Shown here piece after piece: positions 63,600 through 64,000 of a stretch of DNA of 64,000 bases; positions within the stretch are counted from its first letter, which is position 1; each line of letters starts with the position of its first letter. This DNA comes from Escherichia coli. GTDB lineage: Bacteria; Pseudomonadota; Gammaproteobacteria; Enterobacterales; Enterobacteriaceae. Position numbers and translations under genes: made by a program. The notes under the pieces are model-generated. The model did not search any database and was not told where the DNA came from. It worked only from the letters and a program-made list of their open reading frames with translations. Location: NCBI RefSeq assembly GCF_041248615.1, contig NZ_CP158426.1. The stretch is one strand, 5' to 3'.

Positions 63600-64000
63600 G
63601 ACCCTGTAAATAATTCTGTGTAACTGCCGCCGTATTAAAGGTGCTCGCTAAGGCGGTCACCGAACTCGATAATAAAACGGCTCATTGCCAGCCGCCAGTT
63701 CTGGATTGGCATACTCCATTTTTTGACGCCGACTGTATCGCCAGATAAATCACTTTTCGCACCGAGTCGTCCGTTGGGAACACCTTGCGCTTCTTTATCG
63801 CCTGCCGAATGACACTGTTCAGCGATTCGATGGCATTCGTCGTGTAGATGGCCTTGCGGATATCCGGTGGGTAACCGAAGAAGGTGTTGAGATTTTCCCA
63901 GTGTGTGCGCCAGCTCTTGCTGATTTGCGGGTATTTTTCATCCCAGACGCCTGCAAACTTATCCAACGCCATCAACGCCGTTTCCTCTGTCGGGGCCTGA
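63600..64000 (-). mobile_element. Second IS256-family element (IS1414-related), partial; runs off the window
   Basis: ORF 63682..63975 matches the C-terminal region of the transposase at 34513..35721 (…YTTNAIESLNSVIR.AIKKRKVFPTDDSV...) but the conserved tail continues in another frame, suggesting a frameshift. Confidence 0.6.

Follow-up and report, generated by a model that had tools for sequence, protein, structure and literature searches.

Insertion sequences (IS) of the IS256 family measure about 1.3 kb and have a single long transposase open reading frame (ORF), inverted repeats of roughly 25-40 bp that match imperfectly at the two ends, and 8-bp, sometimes 9-bp, target-site duplications. 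Their transposases match the Mutator/IS256 models (Pfam PF00872, NCBIfam NF033543) and carry a DDE catalytic triad within a domain of RNase H-like fold. For the family of ISCth4, an element of Clostridium thermocellum whose transpososome structures are available (6XG8, 6XGW and 6XGX), 8-bp duplications and a copy-out/paste-in mechanism have been reported, and the catalytic residues of the ISCth4 transposase are numbered D175, D241 and E348 (PMC7780238). In Escherichia coli the family includes IS1414, which embeds the astA gene for the heat-stable enterotoxin EAST1 (MPSTQYIRRPASSYASCIWCATACASCHGRTTKPSLAT), and ISEc39, for which a literature search returned nothing beyond passing mentions in genome surveys. 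As a reference for the latter we use the copy of strain LF82, which encodes an intact 402-aa transposase (WP_000343613.1).

Here we analyze a stretch of 64,000 nucleotides from E. coli (contig NZ_CP158426.1, assembly GCF_041248615.1; hereafter, the window). A sequence-only reading had placed at its edge a second, divergent IS256-family element whose transposase C-terminus appeared to lie out of frame with the upstream part, some 28 kb away from a related but non-identical first copy. Each of these statements is borne out (Table 1). The truncated element matches the IS256 family profile and shares 75.8% DNA identity with the first copy, which lies 27.8 kb away (end to end) in the same orientation, the tail of its transposase falls in the -1 frame, and aligning both copies, as that reading had suggested, yields no continuous reading frame and reveals a 1-nt deletion instead. 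The family match and the change of frame are therefore real, correctly placed and far beyond chance. The finding is also ordinary and already known, the RefSeq/PGAP label at the locus, here and in E. coli NRZ14408, being a pseudogene, "IS256 family transposase; frameshifted". We conclude, with high confidence, that the element is an ISEc39-type insertion sequence of the IS256 family that has decayed and become immobile.

Table 1. Features of the two IS256-family elements, in window coordinates
Feature	Position	Strand	Remarks
Target-site duplication CGGTTAAC (8 bp) flanking IS1414	34471-34478 and 35794-35801		
Complete IS1414 (first copy), 1315 bp	34479..35793	-	PGAP: 'IS256-like element IS1414 family transposase'
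Intact 402-aa transposase gene of IS1414	34513-35721	-	
Embedded astA (EAST1) ORF in IS1414	34890-35006	-	Exact 38 codons, in another frame of the transposase gene
Target-site duplication TTCAGAAT, in-window copy	63592..63599	.	Partner after the other IS end, beyond the window
Last 401 bp of ISEc39-type (IS256 family) element, transposase-C-terminal side	63600..64000	-	Element nt 1-401 in ECCNB12-2 and NRZ14408, identical
Terminal inverted repeat GACCCTGTAAATAATTCTGTGTAACTGCC, transposase C-terminal side	63600..63628	.	Matches the reverse complement of the opposite end GAGACTGTAATTAAAATTGTGTAATTGCC and the IS1414 ends
Displaced native C-terminal codons W376-L402 and stop (WSMPIQNWRLAMSRFIIEFGDRLSEHL*)	63635..63718	-	Now in the -1 frame, untranslated
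In-window truncated transposase frame, residues ~282-374 followed by 12 out-of-frame residues NGVCQSRTGGWQ	63682..64000	-	Premature stop 63682-63684; includes catalytic E339 (NAIES motif)
Frameshift site, T6 on the + strand (A6 in mRNA, UCA AAA AAU GG)	63719..63724	-	Seven in intact ISEc39 (UCA AAA AAA UGG)

The whole element measures 1314 bp, and the 913 bp that lie past the window edge were read in the genomes ECCNB12-2 and NRZ14408 (NZ_LT599825.1); the window is identical to the latter wherever the two were compared (60900-64000 and the IS1414 junctions), with collinear spacing. Base 63600 is the exact tip of the element and the first base of its inverted repeat, whose counterpart, outside the window, was read in the same two genomes. 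The 8-bp duplication flanks both sides of the element in ECCNB12-2, NRZ14408, SMS-3-5 and LH50-c. The 105-aa in-window translation matches NCBIfam model NF033543 (IS256 family transposase) with E=4e-26 over model positions 243-336 of 338, and its score of 91.8 bits lies under the cutoff of 150 only because it is a fragment; the repaired full-length protein reaches 418 bits on the same model, and the full element, taken from ECCNB12-2 and NRZ14408, matches Pfam PF00872 (Transposase_mut) with E=3.4e-114. The size of about 1.3 kb, the imperfect inverted repeats and the 8-bp duplication are those of the IS256 family, whereas the single long ORF is broken by the 1-nt deletion, leaving a product of 386 aa instead of 402. 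The window copy is a pseudogenised member of the family, and its intact relatives do have a single long ORF. Apart from this copy, a remnant of 77-83 nt, 88-90% identical to the IS end at 63594-63676, occurs in some thousand E. coli genomes, K-12 MG1655 among them; the K-12-type remnant, which falls under the yjhR annotation, resembles an old end fragment of an IS256-family element.

Entering from position 64000, the minus-strand frame reads QAPTEETALMALDKFAGVWDEKYPQISKSWRTHWENLNTFFGYPPDIRKAIYTTNAIESLNSVIRQAIKKRKVFPTDDSVRKVIYLAIQSASK (ending in LAIQSASK) and continues into NGVCQSRTGGWQ before the premature stop, while the conserved tail KKWSMPIQNWRLAMSRFIIEFGDRLSEHL sits in a different frame that ends with its own stop at 63635-63637. 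Alignments to the first copy and to intact ISEc39 both contain a single coding-region indel, one T missing at 63719-63724, which corresponds to a change from A7 to A6 at codons 374-375 relative to intact ISEc39. An independent repeat comparison within the window places the same event between 63721 and 63725, where the copy-to-copy spacing shortens by one nucleotide, from 29122 to 29121. The T7 run is the sole homopolymer of at least 6 bases in the reference ISEc39 element, and would hence be the likeliest spot for a slippage deletion.

The transposase frame is open for 374 codons from its MDEKK start and then shifts, so that the last 28 residues of the 402-aa protein are swapped for 12 unrelated ones. 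The truncated product keeps positions 12-373 of the 379 in PF00872, and the truncation begins only where the Pfam and NCBIfam models are about to end. It also keeps the DDE triad, identified as D166, D232 and E339 by alignment to D175, D241 and E348 of the ISCth4 transposase (TnpA, PDB 6XG8); only E339 is encoded in the window. Conversely, the lost tail is kept both in IS1414 and in ISCth4 (KWTMRYKNWGLILGQLQIMFEGR), on whose extreme C-terminal tail the ISCth4 structure paper makes no specific statement (PMC7780238). Judging from this conservation, the 386-aa product has probably lost its function.

The window-type element shares 96.0% DNA identity with ISEc39 of LF82 and, after frame repair, 96.0% protein identity, the reference being a PGAP-named copy; IS names rest here on PGAP product names as a proxy for ISfinder, and PGAP names the window copy only generically, as 'IS256 family transposase'. 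ISfinder groups copies as isoforms at roughly 95% DNA identity or more. Relative to LF82 ISEc39 there are 51 substitutions, mostly in two patches past the window edge (element nt 556-649 and 876-975), and 31 of the 52 differences match IS1414. This mosaic composition suggests that gene conversion among IS256-family elements shaped the copy in the past.

The distribution of the two alleles was determined in 5426 complete E. coli genomes. The exact 81-mer carrying T7 is present in 209 of them, at sites on both chromosomes and plasmids, and the exact T6 80-mer in 65. A 221-nt probe that runs from the flank across the IS tip and through the T-run, counted at 80% length coverage or more, likewise matches exactly 65 genomes, which share the same junction between flank and IS. 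Among the matches listed, all copies at this site align over 221 bases without a gap and hence carry T6, T7 not being found among them. Two of these sequences, those of the Sanger-era genome SMS-3-5 and of LH50-c, were read directly and show T6, the same duplication and one SNP. The T6 allele was never seen with a different duplication at both ends, and is confined to one element copy.

The only T6 copy without the usual left flank is that of CFSAN061770, whose right flank is the same, identifying it as the copy present in the other T6 genomes. It is split after nt 241 by an IS21-family (ISSso4-like) insertion (locus extract 3940-4241 and 6857-7959), and its left flank, up to the very tip of the IS, has given way to an 87%-identical homologue of window positions 56333-57523. 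About 6 kb ending at the IS tip, with the adhesin and sigma-like regulator genes, are missing from this genome.

Copies bearing T7 were examined at three other sites, namely in LF82 (TTTTATTG duplication), on a plasmid beside ireA (CCTGGAAA) and in CFT073 beside pic, and only the transposase gene of LF82 is intact among them; of the four ISEc39 copies examined at distinct insertion sites, that of LF82 alone is intact. The copies of CFT073 and of plasmid pS19_651-b are also annotated as frameshifted, each through a single-T deletion of its own (element nt 1209 in CFT073, nt 1043 in pS19_651-b). Homopolymer hotspots were considered as a general rule for ISEc39 decay and found to be only partly true, the deletions of these two copies lying in runs of two and five T.

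The history of the locus begins with one insertion into an island, beside a YadA-like adhesin gene and a gene for a sigma-factor-like HTH regulator, which generated the duplication TTCAGAAT; the aerobactin operon (iucA) lies about 3.5 kb past the far end of the element. A single base was then lost from the A7 run, probably by replication slippage. Given the conservation of the tail, the truncated transposase is presumably inactive or strongly impaired, and the copy would therefore have been inherited passively along with the island ever since. The gene for the YadA-like trimeric-autotransporter adhesin (61200-62801) has two repeats, one of 99 nt in tandem (62021-62218, 93% identical) and one of 106 nt with its copies 309 nt apart, in a stretch that differs between the window and ECCNB12-2.

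Because the missing base falls in a homopolymer run, where 454, Ion Torrent and nanopore assemblies classically acquire false indels, the gene could in principle be intact and the frameshift an error of sequencing or assembly. This explanation deserves next to no credence and was rejected: the exact T6 80-mer recurs in 65 independent complete genomes, the Sanger-era SMS-3-5, checked directly, has it, and T7 is absent from the same-site copies among the matches listed. The deletion is not a sequencing artefact; it arose once in this copy and was then inherited with the island. Another explanation credits the 386-aa protein with a function of its own, be it as an active transposase or as an inhibitor acting in trans by binding to ISEc39 ends. 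The protein does retain its DNA-binding region at the N-terminus and a complete DDE catalytic core, and its frame is open over 374 codons apart from the frameshift, but the tail it lacks is conserved across phyla, a further 16 amino-acid changes separate the copy from ISEc39, and the identical junction in 65 genomes gives no sign of movement of the T6 copy, all of which makes a functional product highly improbable.

The two-frame layout might instead be regulatory: at A_AAA_AAU, programmed -1 frameshifting by the ribosome, or slippage during transcription, would provide low levels of full-length transposase. The zero-frame heptamer A AAA AAU (UCA AAA AAU GGA) fits the X_XXY_YYZ rule, a -1 slip would yield S K N W S M P and rejoin the conserved tail, and IS1 uses the similar A AAA AAC. 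A layout of this kind is not, however, kept among independent copies: T6 is limited to one element copy, found in 65 genomes with its insertion site and in CFSAN061770 with its rearranged left flank, whereas the continuous 7-base frame is the common form (209 genomes) and occurs at other insertion sites. The fold of 63630-63730 on the minus strand offers no significant downstream RNA structure (z = -0.92, with 36 of 200 shuffles folding as well), and on reading the sequence upstream of the heptamer no Shine-Dalgarno-like stimulator was seen. The shift also lies 28 codons from the end, and not between the DNA-binding and catalytic domains as in known cases of IS frameshift regulation, and unrelated single-base deletions elsewhere in other ISEc39 copies form the pattern expected of decay. 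We thus consider programmed frameshifting very unlikely and reject it as the main reading, since the allele occurs in one copy only and lacks downstream structure; the slippery heptamer is a by-product of the deletion in the A7 run.

Certain features nevertheless speak against plain decay. The catalytic triad is intact and the truncation affects only the ends of the protein models; the A_AAA_AAU heptamer, by its fit to the -1 slippery pattern, may allow traces of full-length protein (with SKNW in place of SKKW); and the left flank of CFSAN061770, whose replacement coincides exactly with the IS tip, could be a product of transposase activity at some point. Conceivably, then, the A6 allele is not fully dead, and -1 slippage on the heptamer or reversion from A6 to A7 by replication slippage occasionally restores the full-length transposase, an extension to which we assign only a very small probability. 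If it were true, the homopolymer would throttle an IS256-family element at the level of mutation or translation, and the replaced left flank of CFSAN061770 would be a trace of residual activity. Decay of a single ISEc39-type copy remains the preferred interpretation. It provides an example of IS decay by single-base deletion, alongside the two other ISEc39 copies that each lost one T elsewhere, and the copy can be used to mark one lineage of the island in a stable way, given that 65 of the 5426 genomes share both the insertion and the deletion. For annotation purposes, neither should two genes be called at this locus nor should the frameshift be 'corrected'.

The further proposal of the sequence-only reading, that the two elements could mediate rearrangement, is not well supported. 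They are different insertion sequences, with DNA identity near 76%, a longest shared exact run of 26 nt and protein identities of 74% over the 121-aa in-window segment and 76.9% for the repaired proteins. In E. coli, recombination through RecA requires perfect identity over roughly 23-27 bp, and mismatch repair strongly suppresses it at such divergence. By these measures the pair appears to be a poor substrate for homologous recombination, and since its longest exact run is near the lower limit for RecA and subject to mismatch repair, deletion of the intervening gdhA-ynjB-island segment, though possible, is unlikely. That copies of this family do trade sequence or serve as breakpoints is shown by the IS1414-leaning patches and the CFSAN061770 variant. 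The only evidence of rearrangement found concerns the ISEc39-type copy alone, in CFSAN061770.

The first copy sits in an IS1397 remnant beside gdhA. Two IS insertions of the window, at 33079-34478 and 52348-53674, are absent from ECCNB12-2; one is the IS1397 (IS3 family) remnant that hosts the IS1414 insertion, and the other a 1.3-kb IS3-family element with ORFs of 136 aa and 301 aa (IS2-like). NRZ14408 holds 23 IS1414-like places. An astA-like overlapping frame can also be discerned in the ISEc39-type copy, at element nt 412-528 (ECCNB12-2 extract 6472-6588; …SSASSIWCATA*NSCRGRITKPS…), and this stop-interrupted frame is homologous to the EAST1 frame but degenerate. In biological terms, the intact IS1414 nearby, in which the EAST1 toxin gene is embedded, has more relevance than the flagged copy, which matters little.

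Set against the systems described above, the window element is closest to ISEc39 of LF82, with which it shares the length class (1314 bp for the window type, 1315 bp for ISEc39), the first 21 nt and last 19 nt at the tips (exact anchors) and the 8-bp target duplication, and from which it differs by the loss of one T in the T7 run and the resulting frameshift. IS1414 has the same family and architecture, with its 402-aa transposase and 8-bp duplication, and similar inverted repeats that have the motif TGTGTAA-TGCC in common with those of the window element; it is intact and contains a complete astA ORF, whereas the ISEc39-type copy holds only the interrupted astA-like frame, past the window edge. 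ISCth4 is a distant relative, whose transposase aligns over residues 18-397 (E=8e-110) and shares with the window type the aligned DDE residues and the C-terminal motif KW.M..NW.L....I.F..R; its mechanism is carried over to the window element by homology only. To the insertion sequences regulated by frameshifting, IS1 with its A6C site and the IS3 family with its A6G site, the likeness consists of an A-rich heptamer at the frame junction. In those elements every copy keeps the layout, which joins an ORF for DNA binding to a catalytic one, whereas the window copy carries a derived, single-copy allele, located 28 codons from the end of the gene and devoid of a stimulatory structure.
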